A stretch of DNA of 64,000 nt from Verrucomicrobiota bacterium (GCA_947476875.1 CANJSG010000001.1:25336-89335), one strand, 5' to 3'. Shown: positions 19,799 to 52,924, counted from the first letter of the stretch. Notes: generated by a model not told the origin, from the letters alone. Numbers and translations: made by a program.

Positions 19799-20077
19799 TT
19801 CATCCACGAAGGACACGAAGAAGCACGAAGCAGGAACCGCAGATGAGGCAGAGAATACAGAACGCAGACGACCTTGAATTGCTGGTAGGGCGAAGGCTCC
19901 CGACGAGCCGCCCTGCTGTTTTCAGAACTACAAGCACGCCACGGCGGCCGCGTCATCGGGCATCCAAGCGGGTTGGCTTCCCGCGAGAATCGTTCTGGTC
20001 AAATGTCGGTTTCGAGGCGGCTCGGCGGGAGCCTTCACCCTACCAGTCTTCCGCCCTTGGTGTCCCTTCGTGGATGA
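19799..20077. repeat. Composite palindromic repeat element, copy A
   Basis: Outer arms are tcatccacgaaggacac (19800-19816) and gtgtcccttcgtggatga (20060-20077). Inner arms are ctggtagggcgaaggctcccgacgagccgcc (19882-19912) and ggcggctcggcgggagccttcaccctaccag (20016-20046), complementary at 29 of 31 positions. Confidence 0.8.
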
Positions 20078-20228: not shown

Positions 20229-20416
20229 CCTCCGGGCCTGGGGAGCGACGTCGCGGACGGGGGCGTTTGCCGATGGGATGGCCTCAGTCGGCTGGCCGCA
20301 ACGCGGATGGACCTCCTGGCCGGGCGAGGACGCCCGGCCTACGGAGCCAGACACTTCTCTTACAAGCCCCAGACACATTCGCCGCGCGGCTGCGGCACAC
20401 TGCTTTAGCAATTTCC

Positions 20417-23400
20417 ATGAAACGCATCCTTACTCGGCTGGTCTTCGGAACGCTCGTTCTCGCCGTCTCGCTGCTCAGCGCGTCGGCCGCCGACACCAAG
20501 GTCGAAGCCAAGAGCATCTCGATCAACGGCGGTGCCGAAGACGGCAAGGCCAAGCTCACCATCGAGGCCAATCTGCTCGGCCACGCGGCCTCCGAGCGCG
20601 TGATCCATTCCACCACGATCCAGCACGCGCTCCAGATCACGCGCGACAAACACGCCCACACCGTCGTGGCCACGTTTGACGTTCTCCAGGGAGATCCGCG
20701 CGAACTCACGCTCGTCCTCGGCGGCGAAGGAGACATCCGCAGCGTGACTGGATCCGCTCTGCAGGACTGGGGCGTCCGGCAGGAAACAAACGGCGTGCGC
20801 ACGCTCGTCCTCCGGCCCAAGCGGGCTGATAAGCCGATCACGCAGCTCGCGGTCACGATCACCGCCGAACGCGATCTTCGGACGTGGGCCAACCCGGTGA
20901 AGCCCCTCACCTTCTCGTCGCCGCAGTCCGCCTTGGCGCAGGGGTTCCTCAAGGTCGATGTCGCGGCCGACCTGGCGGCCGAACCGATCAACCCGACCGG
21001 CCTTGTGCCGATCGACGCCAAGTTCCTTCCCGAAACCCTCCGGGGCACGAACAAGGCCGATGATCTGGAGCCGCTCGCCTTCCGCCTGCAGGGCGCGAGC
21101 TACAGCATCCCGCTGAACGTCACCACGACCGATCCCGAGGCGCGGAGCGCGGTGGTGCGCGACTTCAAGCTGGAGGGCGATCTTGCCGGAGGCGCCGCGT
21201 CGTTCATTTATTCCGCGACGGTCCGCGTGAACAACCCGCGCGGCGCCTCGTTCACCCTGCTGGCCGGTGCGGTGGCGCTGAACGAACTCGATCGCCACCC
21301 CGATTGGCGGCTGCGGTTCGTGAACGGAAACTTCATGACCGTCTTCGACAAACCCGGCGACTACGCGGTGCGCCTGCGGTTCCACGCGGCGGTGAAACCG
21401 GCGAATGGCTGGAACAGCGTCGACTTCCGCGTGGCTTCCTCGCCGCTCCAGCCGGTCACGTTGCGCGGGCTCGCGCCGGACACGCAGTTCGCCTTCGGCA
21501 ACGCCGCGCGGCCGGAACGTTCCGGCGCCGAGTTCCGCAGCTTCCTCCCGCCCGACGGCACGGTGCGTTTGGCTTGGAAGGAATCGCGGCCCGAAGCGGA
21601 GGGAAAACTTTTCTACGCGGCCGAAATGCTGGCGCAGGTGAGCGTCGGCGCCGGGCTTGTCCGCCAGAATGCGCTCATCGAAGGCAAGGTCATGCAGGGC
21701 GAGCTTAGCCGCATCGTCCTCATGCTTTCCGGCGCGGGCAACGTCACGGCCGTGCAGGGCCCGAATGTTCTTTCGTGGAAGGTCGAGCCGGTGCCGCAGA
21801 CGCAGGACCGCATGCTGGTCGTGCAGTTCAACCAGCCGCAGAAGGACGCGTTCTCGCTCCAGGTGCAGATGCAGACCGAGCTGGGCGCGTTGCCGCAGTC
21901 GGTCGAGACGATGCGCCTCAAACCCGAAGGCGCGACGCGTTTCGCCGGACACATCCGCGTCGTCAACGAAGGCGCAGTCAGACTCGAGGTCGTGAAGTCC
22001 ACCGGCCTGTCGCAGATCTCGCCCGAGCAGTTTCCCGAAACGGCGGCGACCAAGGTTTGGCTGGGCGCGAAGTCCGGCCAGCGGTTCGCGTTCCGTTTCT
22101 CCAGCACCGATTTCGCGCTGCGGATCCAGGCGGACAATGTCCTGCCTGAGCTGAGCGTGTCACAGCTCCTTGCGTATCATCTCGGCGAGACCGAGCTGGC
22201 GATCGACGGGGAGTTCGAGTTGGACATCCGTGAGGCGCCGCTGCGCGAAGTGCTGCTGCGGATCCCGAAGGGTTTCGCCATCGCGCGGGTCACCGCCTCC
22301 GGCCTGAGCGACTACTTCGTCCGCGAACCGGCCGACCAGCCCGATGCCGAACTGCGCCTCGTCTACGGCTCTCCGATCGCGGATCGCCAGGTCATCCAAC
22401 TGCGCCTGGAACGCAACGGCGCGCTCGGCCAGACGAACTGGTCCCCGCCACGCGTCGAAGTGCTGAAGGCGAAGTCCACGCGCGGCCACATCGCCGTATC
22501 GGCGGACGCCGGTTTCCGCCTGACACCCGATCGCACGGTGGGTCTGAGCGACATCGCCACGGCGTTCTTCCCGAAGAAGGTCGCGGGCATCCAGGCGGCG
22601 TTCCGGCTGGCGGAACCGAACTGGGAAGCGGCCCTGCGCGTCGAGCGTCTCCCGCAGTCGATCCAGGCGGACGTGTTCCACCTCTTCTCCATCGGCGAAG
22701 GCATCGCCTATGGCAGCAGCACGATGAACTTCTTCATTTCGGGCGCGCCCGTGTCGCAGTTTCTCGTCTCGCTGTCCGACGAATACTTCAACGTCGAGTT
22801 CACCGGGAAGGACCTCCGGAGCAACTGGCAGAAGACCACCAACGGCTACCTCGTCACGATGAACACGCCCGTCTCCGGCGCCTACACCCTGCTCGCGAGC
22901 TACGAGCGTCCGTTCAAGGCCCAGGGCGACACGTTGACCTTCACCGGTGCGCGGCCCGTCGATGCCCAGAACGAACAGGGCCACACGCTCGTGGTCAGCG
23001 CGTATCAGTTCCAGGTGAAGCCCTCCAACGTGTCGTCCAACCTGCTCGAACTGGAGACCGCGGAAGTGCCCGCCGAATACCGCCTGTTCTTCGACGCGCC
23101 GATCCTCAAGGCCTACCGCTACGCCTCGCGGCCGTTCAACCTGCAGCTCACGTTGAGTCCGTTGGTCCAGGGCGAGACCCTCAGCCTGGTCGTCGACCGC
23201 GCCGCGTTGACCACCCGCATCTCGAAGGATGGCGACGTCATCACCGACGCGCGTTATTTCGTGAAGAACCGCGGCAATCCGCATCTCAAGCTGACCCTTC
23301 CCGCCGACACGAAGCTTTGGTCGGTCACGGTCAACGGCGCGACCGTCGTGCCGGTCAAGGACGGTGCGTCCGACCTCATTCCGCTGCCGCAGCGCGGGGA

Positions 23401-26400
23401 TCCGAACACCGTGCAGACTCTGGATCTCAAGCTCGCGACCCGTTCCAAGAATCCGGCCCGGGTGACCGCCGCCGCGCCCATCGTCTCGGCGCCGGTGCTG
23501 CTGGCCGATTGGAACCTGGAACCCGATGCCGGACAGAAGCTCGTCTATCGCAGCGGCTCGCTCGCGCCGGTCGGCGGCTTGCCGGATGTCTCGGGCTTCG
23601 CCGCGTTGGCGCGGATCTTCAGCCACTCGGGCGATGCCTGGCTGAAGCTGGGTCTTGCCGGCGGGGTTCTTCTCTTTGGGTTGTGGGCCTGGAAATGGGC
23701 GTCGGGGAACGGCTCCCATCGCTTCGGTGTCCGGCATTTGGGTGGTGCCGTCGTCGGGGCGGTCGGAGTTCTCCTCGCGGCCGTGGTCTTGGTCGACCTC
23801 GCCGAGAGGGCTTCCAGCCAGCGCATCACGATGTCCGACTCCATCACGCTCCTCGCGCCCGTGCAGCAGGGCGGAAGCGCGTTGACCATCGAGGTCGCCA
23901 ACGTGGCCAACGACGCCAGCGGTGACTCGTTCATCGGCCGTGCGTGGCCGGTGGTCCTCGCTTTGTTCGTCTGGGGTTACGCGTTCCTTGGCGGCCGCGA
24001 TGACTCCAAGCGGCTGCTCGTGATGTTGGGATGGACGTGCATGGCGTGGGCCGTCCTGCGCCTGTCGAACAGCTCGGGAACGTTCTTCCTTCTTGTCGCC
24101 CTTTTCCTGCTCATCCACCTGGTCGTGCCGGCCGGCCGGGCCCTCTTCAACGTGCCCCCGGCGCCGCCGCGCAACGACGATCCGGCTTCGTCCGCCACGG
24201 CCACCATAGTCAGCCTGCTCCTGCTGCTAGGCGTGACGCCGCTGGCCGGATCGGCCCAGGCCGCGCCGGCCGGTAGGGCGAAGGCTCCCGCCGAGCCGCC
24301 TAAAAGCCTCCGTCAAGTTGACGGTTCCAGCGGCACCGGTTCGGCTTCCCTCGATGGGCCCGAAGGTTCTGCCAACACCACAAGGCGGCTCGGCGGGAGC
24401 CTTCGCCCTACCGGCGTTTCGTCGATCCGCAGCCGTGAAGGCGCCATCGCCGACTCGGTGATCCAGGAAGTGCGGATCGACGAGAAGTTCGCCCTTGTCA
24501 CCGCGAAAATCCGGTGGACGGCCGGGCAAGGCCAGATGCTGCCCATCCTGCTCGACCCCGGGGTGCTCACGAAGATCGTGTTCCCGTCGAACTCCGTGCG
24601 CCATGTCCAGACGATCCTCAGCGGCAAACGCACCCACCAGCTTGTTGCCCTTGCGGACGGCCCATCCGAGATCGAATTGCAGTATCAGCTCCAGGTCGGT
24701 CAACGCGCCGGAGAGAGCGGATTCGAGTTGGCGACCCCGCATGGCCTGGTCAACCGGATCAGCGTCACGTTGCCGGAGATGGACGTCGATGTGGGCGCGA
24801 CCAACGCCGTGTCCGTCGTGCGCAGCACCGGCGGAACGAACACCACCGTCGCCACGCTCGTGCTCGAGCCGGTGACCCGTTCATGGATCTCCTGGAAGCC
24901 CCGGAGCCGCGACGTGCGCAAGGAGAAGCCCGTGTTCTACGCCGAAGTCTTCCAGCTCTATGCACCCGTCGGCGGTGTGATCGAAGGCGTGCATCAGGTC
25001 CAGATCCGTCCCGCCCAAGGCGAACTCGGTGAACTTGTTTTCGACGTGCCCATGGGCGCGACCATCACGGACGTCGTGACCCCGGTGCCGCCAGAGTCCG
25101 CCAACCGGCTGGGCTTCATCCCGAACATCGTTTCGCTTTGGCGCTTCGATCCCGATACGCGGAAACTGCGCGTCACGCTCAGCCCGCAGCAGTCGAAGCC
25201 GTTCACGCTGGTCGTCCGCTCACAGGTCGCGACGGGGCCGCTTCCCTTCGAGCAGAAGGCCGGACTGCTCGGCGTCGTGGGTGCGGCCGGCCAACTGGGA
25301 TCCGTCGGCGTCGCCACGGGCTCCGAAGTGCAGCTCGACAATGTGACGACCGAATCGCTCTCCGCGATCAACCTCGAGGATTTCCCGGTCTCCGTGCTCC
25401 AGCCGCTGCGCAGCCAGATCGCCGGACTCACGCTGCGCCGCGCGTTCCGCCACGCGGACGCCAAGGGCACCTTGACCGTGAAGGCCTCGGCCGTGGAACC
25501 CGACGTGCGTGTCGAAACCCAAGAGACCCTTTCGCTCGGCGACGACCGGTCGCTGCTCGCGGTCAACGCTGCGTTGACCATCACCCGCGCCGGCATCTTC
25601 CGCGTCAGCTTCGCCCTGCCGGCCGGACTCGACGTCGAGTCGATCAGCGGCGGCGCGCTCAGCCATTGGACGGAGCTGAAGTCCGCCGAAGGAAGGATCA
25701 TCACGCTTCATCTCAAGGGCCGCACCGAAGGCCAGACGCAGTTCGCGGTGAACCTTGCCGGACCCGGCACGAAGTCCGCGAAGAACGTGGCGGTGCCCCG
25801 GCTGACCTTTCGCGAAGCCGGCAAACAACGCGGCCAACTCGTCATCGTTCCGGAACAGGGGATGCGCCTGCAGGTGGCCACGCGCGACGGTGTCACCCAG
25901 CTTGACCCGCAGAAGTCCGGCATCCGGCAGAAGGGTGTGCTCGCCTTCCGCCTGCTCCAGCCCGACTGGGCGCTCGCGCTCGACGTCGAACAGGTCGACG
26001 CCTGGGTGCAGGTCACCGGCCTACAGCACCTGACCGTCACCGAAGCCCAGCTCAAGGCCACGGCGAACCTCCAGTATCAGATCGAAAACACCGGCTTGAA
26101 GGCCCTCCACATCCGCGTCCCGGCCAATGCCGAAGGCGTGCGGTTCCGGGGCGAACAAGTCGCGGACTTCCTGCCCGTCGCCGGCTCGGTCACCAACGGC
26201 CTCCAGACCTGGGAAGTGAAGCTGCATCGCCGCATCATCGGGAAGTATCTGCTCCAGGCCACCTGGCAGACGCCGCTCGCCGAAGCCTCGACCAACGCGC
26301 TGGCCATCGGCATCCAGGCCGATGAGGCCAACCTCCAACGCGGCTTCGTGACCGTGCAGTCCAGCGGACGCCTGCAGCTCCGCATCGGTGCGCTGCCCGC

Positions 26401-27646
26401 GGCTTTGCAGCCGACCGAATGGCAGGGCATCCCGCGCACGTTGTTGCAGGACATCCCCGACACCGCGGCGAACTTCACCTATCGCCTGGTCGAACCCGCC
26501 TTCCAGTTTGCGATGCAGTTGGACCGCCGTGAAGCCACCAAACTTCTCCCGGCCCGCGTCAGTTCCGTGAAACTCACCAGCGTCGTCTCCGATGACGGCG
26601 TCATGCTCACCCAGGTCCGTCTCGACCTCGTGCCCGGCGACAAGCGCCTGCTCAACCTCACGCTTCCGGCCGAGGCGCGCTTCTGGTTCGCCTTCGTCAA
26701 CCAGAACGGCGTCTGGCCTTGGCGCGACCAGGACAAAATCCTGATCCCGCTCGAACAGCAGTCGCGCGCCGACAAACCCACGACCGTCGAATTCTTCTAC
26801 TCCAGCCGCATCGGCAAAGGCGGCTCGGGTTCGGTGAACCTCGCGTTGCTCGGGCCGAAGTTCGATCTGCCGCTCGAAAACATCTCGTGGCAGGTCTACC
26901 TGAACGACCGTTGGAAAGTGACCAAGTGGGCCGGCTCGCTCCAGCTGCAGGACAATGTCCGCGCCGTCGCGCCCGTGTCCGTCGACGTGCAGTCTTATCT
27001 CGCGAACGAGGTGAGCCTGAACAAGGAGAAGACCAAGGCCGCCGAACAGATGCTGACGCTCGGCAACACGCTCCTTGAACGCGGCGACGCCGGCCAGGCG
27101 CGCTGGGCCTTCCAGAACGCCTTCGGACTGAGCCAGCACGACAACGCCTTCAACGAGGACGCCCGCGTCCAGCTGCACAACCTGAAGCTCCAGCAGGCCT
27201 TGATCGGCTTGAACGTGCGGCAATCCGCCGCCGGCGGTGAAGCCGCTTCGACAAAAGGGAACCTCCAGCAGCTCCGCAGCCAGAACACCGTGGCCTACAC
27301 CCAGCAGCAGGCGAAGCAGCTCATCGACGCCAACACGGCCGACGACAACGCCTCGCTCATGAAACTCGCCGAACGCATCATCCAGCAGCAGGACGCCGCC
27401 GTGCCCGCGCCCGCCGCGATCCGCGCTGCGATCCCGCAACAGGGCCGGCTTCTGACCTTCAGCCGCACCGTGCAGGTCGACACCTCGGCCGACCTCGACA
27501 TCCGCCTGACCGCATCGGTCGAGAATGAGGCCTCCTTCGGCACCCGGTTGGGCATCCTGTTCACCGTCTTCGCCGGGTTTGGATTGATGGTGTGGCTTGG
27601 TGGAAAACTTCGTCGAGACAACGCTGAACCGGCCTTGGGCAACTAG
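20417..27646 (+). CDS. Giant (2,409-aa) secreted/membrane-anchored protein built from two paralogous halves; no recognisable named domain
   Basis: The ATG at 20417 gives the signal peptide MKRILTRLVFGTLVLAVSLLSASA. The frame is uninterrupted to 27646. Each half has three (R/Q)G-x-h-x-V...P modules and an LxLTLPA..W..VN...LIPL motif. There is a cluster of about 5 TM helices at about 23630-24260, and a final TM helix LGILFTVFAGFGLMVWLGG near the C-terminus. This may have been two genes originally (see findings). Confidence 0.75.
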   Translation: MKRILTRLVFGTLVLAVSLLSASAADTKVEAKSISINGGAEDGKAKLTIEANLLGHAASERVIHSTTIQHALQITRDKHAHTVVATFDVLQGDPRELTLVLGGEGDIRSVTGSALQDWGVRQETNGVRTLVLRPKRADKPITQLAVTITAERDLRTWANPVKPLTFSSPQSALAQGFLKVDVAADLAAEPINPTGLVPIDAKFLPETLRGTNKADDLEPLAFRLQGASYSIPLNVTTTDPEARSAVVRDFKLEGDLAGGAASFIYSATVRVNNPRGASFTLLAGAVALNELDRHPDWRLRFVNGNFMTVFDKPGDYAVRLRFHAAVKPANGWNSVDFRVASSPLQPVTLRGLAPDTQFAFGNAARPERSGAEFRSFLPPDGTVRLAWKESRPEAEGKLFYAAEMLAQVSVGAGLVRQNALIEGKVMQGELSRIVLMLSGAGNVTAVQGPNVLSWKVEPVPQTQDRMLVVQFNQPQKDAFSLQVQMQTELGALPQSVETMRLKPEGATRFAGHIRVVNEGAVRLEVVKSTGLSQISPEQFPETAATKVWLGAKSGQRFAFRFSSTDFALRIQADNVLPELSVSQLLAYHLGETELAIDGEFELDIREAPLREVLLRIPKGFAIARVTASGLSDYFVREPADQPDAELRLVYGSPIADRQVIQLRLERNGALGQTNWSPPRVEVLKAKSTRGHIAVSADAGFRLTPDRTVGLSDIATAFFPKKVAGIQAAFRLAEPNWEAALRVERLPQSIQADVFHLFSIGEGIAYGSSTMNFFISGAPVSQFLVSLSDEYFNVEFTGKDLRSNWQKTTNGYLVTMNTPVSGAYTLLASYERPFKAQGDTLTFTGARPVDAQNEQGHTLVVSAYQFQVKPSNVSSNLLELETAEVPAEYRLFFDAPILKAYRYASRPFNLQLTLSPLVQGETLSLVVDRAALTTRISKDGDVITDARYFVKNRGNPHLKLTLPADTKLWSVTVNGATVVPVKDGASDLIPLPQRGDPNTVQTLDLKLATRSKNPARVTAAAPIVSAPVLLADWNLEPDAGQKLVYRSGSLAPVGGLPDVSGFAALARIFSHSGDAWLKLGLAGGVLLFGLWAWKWASGNGSHRFGVRHLGGAVVGAVGVLLAAVVLVDLAERASSQRITMSDSITLLAPVQQGGSALTIEVANVANDASGDSFIGRAWPVVLALFVWGYAFLGGRDDSKRLLVMLGWTCMAWAVLRLSNSSGTFFLLVALFLLIHLVVPAGRALFNVPPAPPRNDDPASSATATIVSLLLLLGVTPLAGSAQAAPAGRAKAPAEPPKSLRQVDGSSGTGSASLDGPEGSANTTRRLGGSLRPTGVSSIRSREGAIADSVIQEVRIDEKFALVTAKIRWTAGQGQMLPILLDPGVLTKIVFPSNSVRHVQTILSGKRTHQLVALADGPSEIELQYQLQVGQRAGESGFELATPHGLVNRISVTLPEMDVDVGATNAVSVVRSTGGTNTTVATLVLEPVTRSWISWKPRSRDVRKEKPVFYAEVFQLYAPVGGVIEGVHQVQIRPAQGELGELVFDVPMGATITDVVTPVPPESANRLGFIPNIVSLWRFDPDTRKLRVTLSPQQSKPFTLVVRSQVATGPLPFEQKAGLLGVVGAAGQLGSVGVATGSEVQLDNVTTESLSAINLEDFPVSVLQPLRSQIAGLTLRRAFRHADAKGTLTVKASAVEPDVRVETQETLSLGDDRSLLAVNAALTITRAGIFRVSFALPAGLDVESISGGALSHWTELKSAEGRIITLHLKGRTEGQTQFAVNLAGPGTKSAKNVAVPRLTFREAGKQRGQLVIVPEQGMRLQVATRDGVTQLDPQKSGIRQKGVLAFRLLQPDWALALDVEQVDAWVQVTGLQHLTVTEAQLKATANLQYQIENTGLKALHIRVPANAEGVRFRGEQVADFLPVAGSVTNGLQTWEVKLHRRIIGKYLLQATWQTPLAEASTNALAIGIQADEANLQRGFVTVQSSGRLQLRIGALPAALQPTEWQGIPRTLLQDIPDTAANFTYRLVEPAFQFAMQLDRREATKLLPARVSSVKLTSVVSDDGVMLTQVRLDLVPGDKRLLNLTLPAEARFWFAFVNQNGVWPWRDQDKILIPLEQQSRADKPTTVEFFYSSRIGKGGSGSVNLALLGPKFDLPLENISWQVYLNDRWKVTKWAGSLQLQDNVRAVAPVSVDVQSYLANEVSLNKEKTKAAEQMLTLGNTLLERGDAGQARWAFQNAFGLSQHDNAFNEDARVQLHNLKLQQALIGLNVRQSAAGGEAASTKGNLQQLRSQNTVAYTQQQAKQLIDANTADDNASLMKLAERIIQQQDAAVPAPAAIRAAIPQQGRLLTFSRTVQVDTSADLDIRLTASVENEASFGTRLGILFTVFAGFGLMVWLGGKLRRDNAEPALGN
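24269..24415. repeat. Inverted-repeat element copy B, inserted in frame inside the giant ORF
   Basis: Left arm ccggtagggcgaaggctcccgccgagccgcc (24270-24300) and right arm ggcggctcggcgggagccttcgccctaccgg (24384-24414) are perfect reverse complements, 32 bp if the flanking g/c pair is included. The total is 147 bp, or 49 codons, with no stop in the host frame. Confidence 0.85.
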
Positions 27647-27709: not shown

Positions 27710-27870
27710 GGCAGGGCGCAGGCTCCCGCCAAGCCGCCTCGAAACTTTCTCGAACCAAGGTCCGCCACGGCGGCCATGCAGGACAACCGCCGCCGCTGAT
27801 GGGCTCCCCGGAATAGCCTGCCCGGTCTTCGCAAGCCACAAGGCGGCTCGGCCGGAGCCGTCGCCCTACC
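27710..27870. repeat. Inverted-repeat element copy C (diverged arms)
   Basis: ggcagggcgcaggctcccgccaagccgcc (27710-27738) pairs with aggcggctcggccggagccgtcgccctacc (27841-27870), about 25 of 30 positions complementary. Lies immediately downstream of the giant ORF stop. Confidence 0.7.
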
Positions 27871-36632: not shown

Positions 36633-36787
36633 CTGGTAGGGCGAAGGCTCCCGCCGATCCGCCTTGGGTTTTATGGACGCAAGGCAGGCTTCTCGCGGGA
36701 AGACGGGGATGCTCCAAATTGCGGCTGCTGCCTGCTTCAACAACGCAGCCTGATGACGCGGCTCGGCCGGAGCCATCGCCCTACCCA
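36633..36787. repeat. Inverted-repeat element copy D
   Basis: ctggtagggcgaaggctcccgccgatccgcc (36633-36663) pairs with gcggctcggccggagccatcgccctaccca (36758-36787). Lies between the terminator and the MFS gene. Confidence 0.7.
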
Positions 36788-52748: not shown

Positions 52749-52835
52749 GCCAGGCATCCCTGCCCAGCCAGTGGGTGTTCCTTGTGACGACAGAATCGCA
52801 GCACCTCCCGGCCGCGCGCGGACGCGCGGCCTACC

Positions 52836-52924
52836 AAGGCTCGGCGGGAGCCTTCGCCCTACCAGTCGGGACGACTGCCGCCGTCTTGTCTTCTTCGTGC
52901 CCCTTCGTGTTATTCGTGGATGAA
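52836..52924. repeat. Half copy (E) of the composite palindromic element
   Basis: aaggctcggcgggagccttcgccctaccag (52836-52865) matches the right inner arm of copies A and B. cttcttcgtgccccttcgtgttattcgtggatgaa (52890-52924) resembles the right outer arm of copy A. I found no left-arm partner. Confidence 0.65.

Follow-up and report, generated by a model that had tools for sequence, protein, structure and literature searches.

A REPIN-like palindromic element in frame within a giant two-domain envelope-protein gene of an uncultured freshwater Verrucomicrobiota genus

The DNA analysed here (the window) is a stretch of 64,000 nucleotides (nt) from a Verrucomicrobiota bacterium (GCA_947476875.1; CANJSG010000001.1:25336-89335). 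At the locus of interest, a 141-nt palindromic element lies in frame within a gene for an envelope protein of about 2,409 residues. The host protein comprises a signal peptide, a first large domain, a cluster of about six hydrophobic helices, a linker, a second large domain paralogous to the first, and a C-terminal helix. The two halves share 24% identity (E value 1e-32) over 654 residues, and neither has a match in Pfam. The element is located in the linker, beyond the last hydrophobic helix of the cluster. In a first-pass annotation, made from the nucleotide sequence alone, this helix had been taken for the signal peptide of a second paralogue, preceded by an ATA codon one change away from ATG. 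The ATA codon is present at 24206-24208. The hydrophobic segment, however, is most plausibly helix six of the internal membrane cluster, which, in the topology deduced from the sequence, would re-export the second domain. A small-x-small motif (AQA, AHA, ASA, AMA and others; 24251-24271 in the window) recurs after the last helix in many orthologues. It is conceivable that signal peptidase cleaves after AQA and separates the paralogous halves following translation.

The arms of the element are 33 nt each, 100% complementary, and separated by 81 nt, as determined by repeat search. Its core is codon-aligned with the open reading frame (ORF) 20267-27646, which is stop-free through the element, and the peptide added to the protein is 47 residues long (GRAKAPAEPP...RRLGGSLRPT). 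The perfect inverted arms, the stop-free in-frame unit and the peptide that had been described in the first-pass annotation were thus all confirmed, with slightly different dimensions (arms of 33 nt and a core of 141 nt, or 47 codons). Folding of the element RNA in silico, as had been proposed, gave an energy of -111.4 kcal/mol (z = -9.1 relative to shuffled sequences). No terminator-like site was found within positions 23900-24800, and the stem is followed not by a T-run but by the sequence GGCGTTTCGTCG. At the gathering thresholds of Rfam, the sole match in the window is a tRNA, and the palindrome matches no known RNA family. The arms are not an artefact of assembly, because the same insertion is present in two independent metagenome-assembled genomes (MAGs) of other species, each with its own substitutions, and because both flank-to-arm junctions are spanned without mismatch by Logan contigs from four public DNA runs. 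This latter confirmation covers the two junctions only, as the k=31 contigs end within the arms and do not include the unique 81-nt interior.

The first-pass annotation had suggested that two genes, once separate, had been fused or bridged by the insertion. The halves are indeed paralogues, and the element adjoins the 3' side of the signal-peptide-like segment, as would be expected of such a junction. The alignment of orthologous loci, which had been proposed as a check, revealed that the element is mostly absent from the relatives, but that these have one open frame without a stop/start junction. Wherever the contig is long enough, both halves are encoded in a single open frame of about 2,100-2,700 residues; this holds for 25 of 41 genomes from the order and for 80 loci of named Verrucomicrobiota MAGs. 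This frame runs through the hydrophobic segment, and almost all such loci are without the 47 codons. Around the position of the ATA codon, the three closest relatives read ACA, CTG or ACG, and none has an ATG. Because more than 80 element-free orthologues across the phylum have one continuous frame of about 2,400 residues through the same segment, a fusion can be given practically no credence. The giant two-domain ORF is, as these alignments show, an ancient single gene in which the element fused nothing.

The element belongs to a dispersed repeat family. When no more than 3 mismatches are allowed, the 29-nt arm matches nine places in the window (chance expectation, 0). In the home genome (G000), a 4.17-Mb MAG in 317 contigs that is 85.5% complete, a limit of 3 mismatches yields 68 arms and a limit of 5 yields 74, which form 27 pairs. 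With their GTAG-tagged ends, these numbers bear out the earlier suggestion of a dispersed palindrome resembling a miniature inverted-repeat transposable element (MITE) or a repetitive extragenic palindromic (REP) sequence. The copy number of the family is about 35-50 per genome. Most units in the home genome are 159-163 nt long, five are 151 nt, and the copy in the host gene is the only one of 141 nt. It is the shortest among 26 aligned paired copies, with approximately 20 nt of spacer missing relative to the main size class. An orientation-corrected alignment contains a single family in both orientations, with near-invariant arms and a far more diverged spacer that retains the short motifs GCGGC and CTTCCCGCGAGAAGCC. 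Two subfamilies, which the diversity of the spacers had suggested, were dropped on the basis of this alignment. Arms were found in all seven genomes of the genus (22-102 per genome), while a search of 34 other genera of the order returned a single stray match and otherwise none; the family is genus-specific. When genes were approximated by ORF length and GC content at third codon positions, two of the 26 paired copies lay within clear long coding frames, and most others lay 20-140 nt past the end of a gene. The other paired copies in the window (Table 1) are intergenic and have more diverged arms, as had been noted at first pass.

According to locus titles, the taxon belongs to uncultured Verrucomicrobiota (Limisphaerales-type MAGs), and the sequencing runs that hold the window sequence are lake-water and freshwater metagenomes. 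A recurrent variant of the arm combines G13C with C20G (GAAGCCTCCCGGCG) at mirrored positions, for example in G000:C10:4347, G000:C168:7454 and contigs C87 and C102 of G004. It is often partnered with a canonical arm, so that a small local dyad is kept rather than the long hairpin. Two metatranscriptomes with weak matches contained only fragments of a relative (~92% identical) and arm-bearing contigs of other copies. In a freshwater sediment metatranscriptome (run X22), several RNA-derived contigs carry the arm (window positions 24378-24412) with other flanks, and therefore some copies of this family, or of the family of a relative, are transcribed.

The copy in the host gene is not recent, as had been supposed in the first-pass annotation. 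The same element is found, with 8 substitutions, in G001, in which the flanking sequence has 90% nt identity. The same 141-nt variant is also present at the identical codon position and in the identical frame in G004, which has 71-74% nt identity and 69% protein identity. Three species, with protein identity as low as 69%, therefore share this insertion by orthology. In G003 (89-90% nt identity), the element is absent, the linker is represented at this place by 33 nt, and the gene is intact. A rooted maximum-likelihood tree of the host protein, calculated with the element removed, has the topology (G004+,(G000+,(G001+,G003-))), where + denotes presence of the element, with support of 100/100, 100/100 and 98/97. 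Because the element-free G003 nests inside the element-bearing clade, the distribution is accounted for by one gain prior to the split of G000, G001, G003 and G004 and one subsequent in-frame deletion in G003. The copy is accordingly old and dispensable in at least one lineage. An independent insertion in G004, which had been considered while that locus was unoriented, was ruled out by oriented protein and codon alignments. The footprint GGT-CCTTC at the G003 deletion was considered as a remnant of the arm ends, but is too short to count as evidence.

Table 1. Features of the host gene, the in-frame element and related copies within the window
Feature	Position	Strand	Remarks
Host gene, envelope protein of ~2,409 residues	20417..27646	+	likely start ATG 20417, in ORF 20267-27646
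Last hydrophobic helix of the cluster (IVSLLLLLGVTPLAGSAQA)	24206..24262	+	conserved in all orthologues (alignments); internal, signal-anchor-like
REP-doublet (REPIN-like) core, GGTAGGG...CCCTACC	24272..24412	+	141 nt; 47 in-frame codons, GRAKAPAEPPKSLRQVDGSSGTGSASLDGPEGSANTTRRLGGSLRPT
Left arm, GTAG-tagged REP unit	24269..24301	+	perfect inverted repeat runs 3 nt into host sequence
Right arm, same REP unit inverted	24383..24415	-	30/30 identical in G000 and G004; flanking gene ~72% nt identity
Interior spacer, family motifs GCGGC and CTTCCC	24302..24382	+	68% identity between G000 and G004
Intergenic family copy upstream of host gene	19884..20044	+	orthologous in G001, G003 and G004; arms 28/29 identical, interior 56-69%
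Intergenic family copy downstream of host gene	27710..27870	+	64 nt past the host-gene stop codon; not at the corresponding place in G003 and G004
Intergenic family copy	36635..36785	-	151-nt size class; arm matches and pair alignment
Solo arm	52835..52863	-	arm match

The arms of the host-gene copy have been conserved to an unusual extent. Between G000 and G004, they are identical at 57 of 60 positions, compared with 68% identity in the interior and 71-74% in the flanks (52-55% at third codon positions). The excess over the ~72% of the flanks is significant when all sites are considered (binomial P = 9e-6), as well as for third codon positions alone, where 18 of 20 are identical relative to an expected 54% (P = 6e-4). 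The interior spacer changes at about the neutral rate. Since the third positions are conserved, selection at the level of the protein is ruled out as the cause of arm conservation. In the intergenic copy upstream of the host gene, the arms are identical at 28/29 and 28/29 positions in G001 and G003, with an interior at 56-69% and flanks at ~70%. Because this intergenic orthologue has the same pattern, the constraint on the arms is most simply viewed as a family-wide property of the nucleotide sequence, and not as evidence of a function in the host gene. The original proposal was that the copy is either recent or has its hairpin under selection. Its first part fails, and of its second part there remains a constraint on the arms at the nucleotide level that an intergenic orthologue shares equally. 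We infer that this constraint is due to gene conversion among the 35-50 copies and/or recognition of the arms by a cognate enzyme or a host factor that binds them. Two further observations concern the same intergenic copy. Its spacer has only 56% identity in the comparison of G000 with G001, against 78% at nearby third codon positions, and it may have been replaced or converted while the arms stayed fixed. In the G004 orthologue, the left arm contains a nested 24-nt insert of another palindrome.

The hairpin might alternatively be retained for an action in the mRNA, either as a site for RNase III or other processing, or as a ribosome pause following the signal-anchor helix that would aid membrane insertion or uncouple the two halves. 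The very stable stem (-111 kcal/mol) is compatible with such a role, as are the arms, which are kept far above neutral expectation even at third codon positions, and the strong palindromes of other families that are found in this linker in five or more further lineages. The equal conservation of arms in an intergenic orthologue argues against it. Moreover, G003 is without the element and has an intact gene, approximately 70 of the 80 orthologues have no palindrome in the linker, and a T-run of the terminator type is absent. Cleavage at the stem would also leave a 5' half without a stop codon and a 3' half without a start codon. On balance, we regard an mRNA function as very unlikely.

The linker itself is permissive. 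Measured from FNVPP... to ...IADSVIQEV, it is typically 45-60 residues long in the relatives and 100 residues here, and among full-length loci the linker length ranges from about 30 to 271 residues. In three of these loci (L030, L042 and L047), the homologous linker contains a GTAGCGCAGA...-type palindromic element in frame, with a stem of ~35 bp in L030, while in L084 and L091 it contains a CCCTCTCCCC/GGGGAGAGGG-type element in frame, present as two tandem copies in L091. These five loci therefore represent at least two palindromic families other than the one studied here. In L084, the linker holds one element of each of two other palindromic families, and in L082 it holds a segment of ~200 residues that, as read from its sequence (…LSIYNRALAAAEIQAIY…), is Laminin-G/concanavalin-like (LamG). 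The earlier suggestion that the insertion is tolerated in a disordered linker fits all of the evidence.

The studied family is also present in frame in genes for HrpA, LpxB, a pectate lyase, a PSCyt2-LamG-PSD1 protein and an NHL-repeat protein. A copy of the 151-nt class (G000:C45:7660-7810; L099), located outside the window and common to G001, is placed between the HA2 and OB domains of a DEAH helicase of the HrpA type. This site is occupied by a different palindrome (GGGCGTCC..GGACGCCC type) in G003, G004 and G006, and by a CCCTCTCCCC/GGGGAGAGGG-type element in G002. The remaining genic copies are those of G002:C156 (LpxB), G004:C168 (pectate lyase), G002:C271 (PSCyt2-LamG-PSD1) and G006:C745 (NHL protein). 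In both LpxB and pectate lyase, the insert splits the Pfam match in two. Near '...EEDEGRWIESRCDSTASRSAAGPTSPASPGEDARPTALAASPE...' in the HrpA sequence of G000:C45, there is a further insert of ~55 residues between helicase motifs, with a peptide that seems to stem from a repeat. LpxB of G000 contains a similar peptide (RWAESRCDSAGSRSAAAA) at the site of the REPIN-like copy of G002, where G000 has a different small palindrome. The two peptides probably belong to another small palindromic family that lies in frame in genes.

Only 4 of 25 copies of the family have a length divisible by three, and 39% of their frames are free of stops, compared with 30% in shuffled sequences. It follows that the genic copies are survivors that have been filtered by selection. 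The excess of open frames is not a strong signal, and pre-adaptation of the family for coding was rejected. The 47 residues might themselves have acquired a use, for example that of a recognition tag or of a spacer whose length matters. Their retention in three species would be in keeping with such a co-option, as would the GRAKAPAEPP arm frame in which most genic copies are read. The bias in frame can, however, be explained otherwise, as one alternative is interrupted by TAG and the peptide of the remaining open frame is rich in Arg and Leu. Furthermore, identity of the interior peptide between G000 and G004 is only ~52% (hand count from the alignment), which is below the flanking protein, third positions in the interior are not more variable than other positions, and G003 has lost the element altogether. 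Co-option of the peptide is thus highly improbable, and at the level of the protein the insertion is presumably neutral.

In kind, the element appears to be REPIN-like, i.e., a head-to-head doublet of ~29-nt, GTAG-tagged REP units around a spacer of ~80-100 nt. The arm begins with G-GTAG-GGCG..., which places the GTAG tetranucleotide at the outer end of the unit. At a near-clean empty site in the pectate lyase gene, identified by comparison of G000 with G004, the host sequence stops directly before GTAG. The traits of REPs and REPINs that are present in the family include dispersed multicopy occurrence, the outer GTAG tag, inverted paired units, greater conservation of the arms than of the spacer, and a mainly extragenic location. 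The GTAG superfamily of REPs, which is characterized by a terminal GTAG tag and a dominance of head-to-head dimers, has been recorded from members of the PVC superphylum, among them a Verrucomicrobium (PMC3733652). Its units and dimers have been documented in frame and wholly inside ORFs of unrelated proteins, and in related species a given gene may hold different REPs at roughly one position (PMC3733652). Like the intragenic GTAG REPs described by Di Nocera, De Gregorio and Rocco (2013; PMC3733652), the present units have a terminal GTAG, form head-to-head dimers, and are found mostly downstream of genes, with some in frame. They differ from typical REP dimers in having longer arms (~29 nt) and a much longer spacer (~80-100 nt), and from GTAG REPs in that the single-arm stem-loop is weak, no REPtron was found, and the lineage is uncultured (PMC3733652). 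Beyond the cases in that study (PMC3733652), the copy examined here has a documented age (69% protein identity), an in-frame loss, and a constraint on its arms within a coding region.

The REPIN, as defined by Bertels and Rainey, consists of two inverted REPs around a spacer that form a long hairpin (PMC3116915; PMC3337134). In Pseudomonas and Enterobacteria, REPINs have been defined together with a single-copy REP-associated tyrosine transposase (RAYT) flanked by REPs, and were described as extragenic (PMC3116915; PMC3337134). They are inherited vertically and persist for long periods (compare bioRxiv 10.1101/2021.07.10.451892). The present family resembles them in its inverted REPs and spacer hairpin, its tens of copies per genome, its arms that are better conserved than the spacer, and its vertical inheritance and long persistence. 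Unlike REPINs, it has several genic copies and an arm-flanked RAYT was not found. For this latter reason, the element may be said to work like a REPIN, but its membership is unproven.

A second point of comparison is provided by the Rickettsia palindromic elements (RPEs), which Ogata et al., in 2000, reportedly described as sequences of ~100-150 bp in frame in many unrelated protein genes. The RPEs contribute extra stretches of peptide at permissive sites and do not destroy the host protein, and their hosts are obligate intracellular Alphaproteobacteria. They are not known to have a dedicated transposase. The family studied here is likewise in frame in unrelated proteins, although this is a shared mode of working and not membership, since the sequences are unrelated and its arms are tagged with GTAG, rather than the CGTC of RPEs (PMC3733652). 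In their behaviour, the in-frame genic copies correspond to what has been described for intragenic REPs (PMC3733652) as well as for RPEs.

Taken together, the best explanation, to which we assign a probability of roughly three in four, is that a REP doublet, selfish or commensal in nature, inserted into a flexible linker, was retained since the frame was preserved, and is translated as extra linker, while its arms are held by family-level processes. One copy would have entered the poorly conserved linker past the last membrane helix in the common ancestor of G000, G001, G003 and G004. It would have survived because the 141-nt variant is a multiple of three and is read in a stop-free frame, so that a flexible linker rich in Gly, Ser, Pro and Ala merely gained 47 residues. 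Inheritance would have been vertical since then, with an in-frame deletion of the copy in the G003 lineage, and the arms would have remained near-invariant for the same reason as those of the intergenic orthologue.

Several observations weigh against this explanation. The single-arm stem-loop has an energy of only -6.4 kcal/mol with GTAG unpaired, which is no better than shuffled sequences (z = -0.2). The interior of the host-gene copy is 91% identical between G000 and G001, as opposed to 56% for the intergenic orthologue, and this better-kept interior may reflect coding constraint, or something more. Occupation of the same site by different palindromes recurs, both in the linker and in HrpA and LpxB, and such recurrent use could mean targeting or selection instead of mere tolerance. 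The repeated capture of palindromes at the linker, from this family and from at least two others, with arms that stay near-invariant within coding sequence over deep divergence, would, in one version, be the outcome of selection for a hairpin, in mRNA or DNA, whose role is to pace translation or membrane insertion, or to process the long mRNA. We consider this a long shot, but if true, REP-type elements would have been recruited as regulatory modules within an ORF and would not be mere passengers.

In addition, neither a RAYT nor another transposase flanked by the arms was detected at any of the 29 PF01797 (Y1) loci across seven draft genomes (78-93% complete), and mobilisation of the selfish doublet is for this reason unproven. 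The Y1 genes examined (L013-L015 and L121) bear unrelated, long terminal inverted repeats (TIRs). Those of L014 and L015 (G000:C187 and C27) and of L121 (G001:C163) are of the IS200/IS605 type and lie between partly palindromic TIRs of 32-52 nt that are unlike the studied arms, an arrangement that corresponds to the 'TIRYT' of PMC3733652. The failure to find an arm-flanked RAYT, along with the long TIRs and the unit length of 140-163 bp, would be consistent with a classical MITE that is mobilised through recognition of its 30-nt TIRs by a DDE transposase, rather than an element of the REP/RAYT type. However, no target-site duplication was found in the 26 aligned copies or at the empty site in pectate lyase, and the draft assembly of the home genome contains no arm pair spaced at 0.7-3 kb, a distance that could enclose a transposase. 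The GTAG end tag, the contrast between well-conserved arms and a diverged spacer, and the location just downstream of genes are also traits of REPs and REPINs, and a classical MITE is therefore unlikely.

The story of a gene fusion brought about by a mobile element is thus removed, and the giant two-domain ORF emerges as an ancient single gene. Annotators should be aware that the peptides GRAKAPAEPP, RRLGGSLRPT and AARREPSPY are derived from repeats and are not domains. More broadly, a REP-doublet family of an uncultured freshwater Verrucomicrobiota genus behaves like the palindromic elements of Rickettsia, and does so within essential or conserved genes such as those for LpxB and HrpA. Its genic copies persist through speciation, hold their arms at the nucleotide level amid drifting codons, and are capable of clean loss. 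They thereby offer natural experiments on where proteins tolerate insertions of 50 residues, and on the maintenance of REP arms by conversion or selection.

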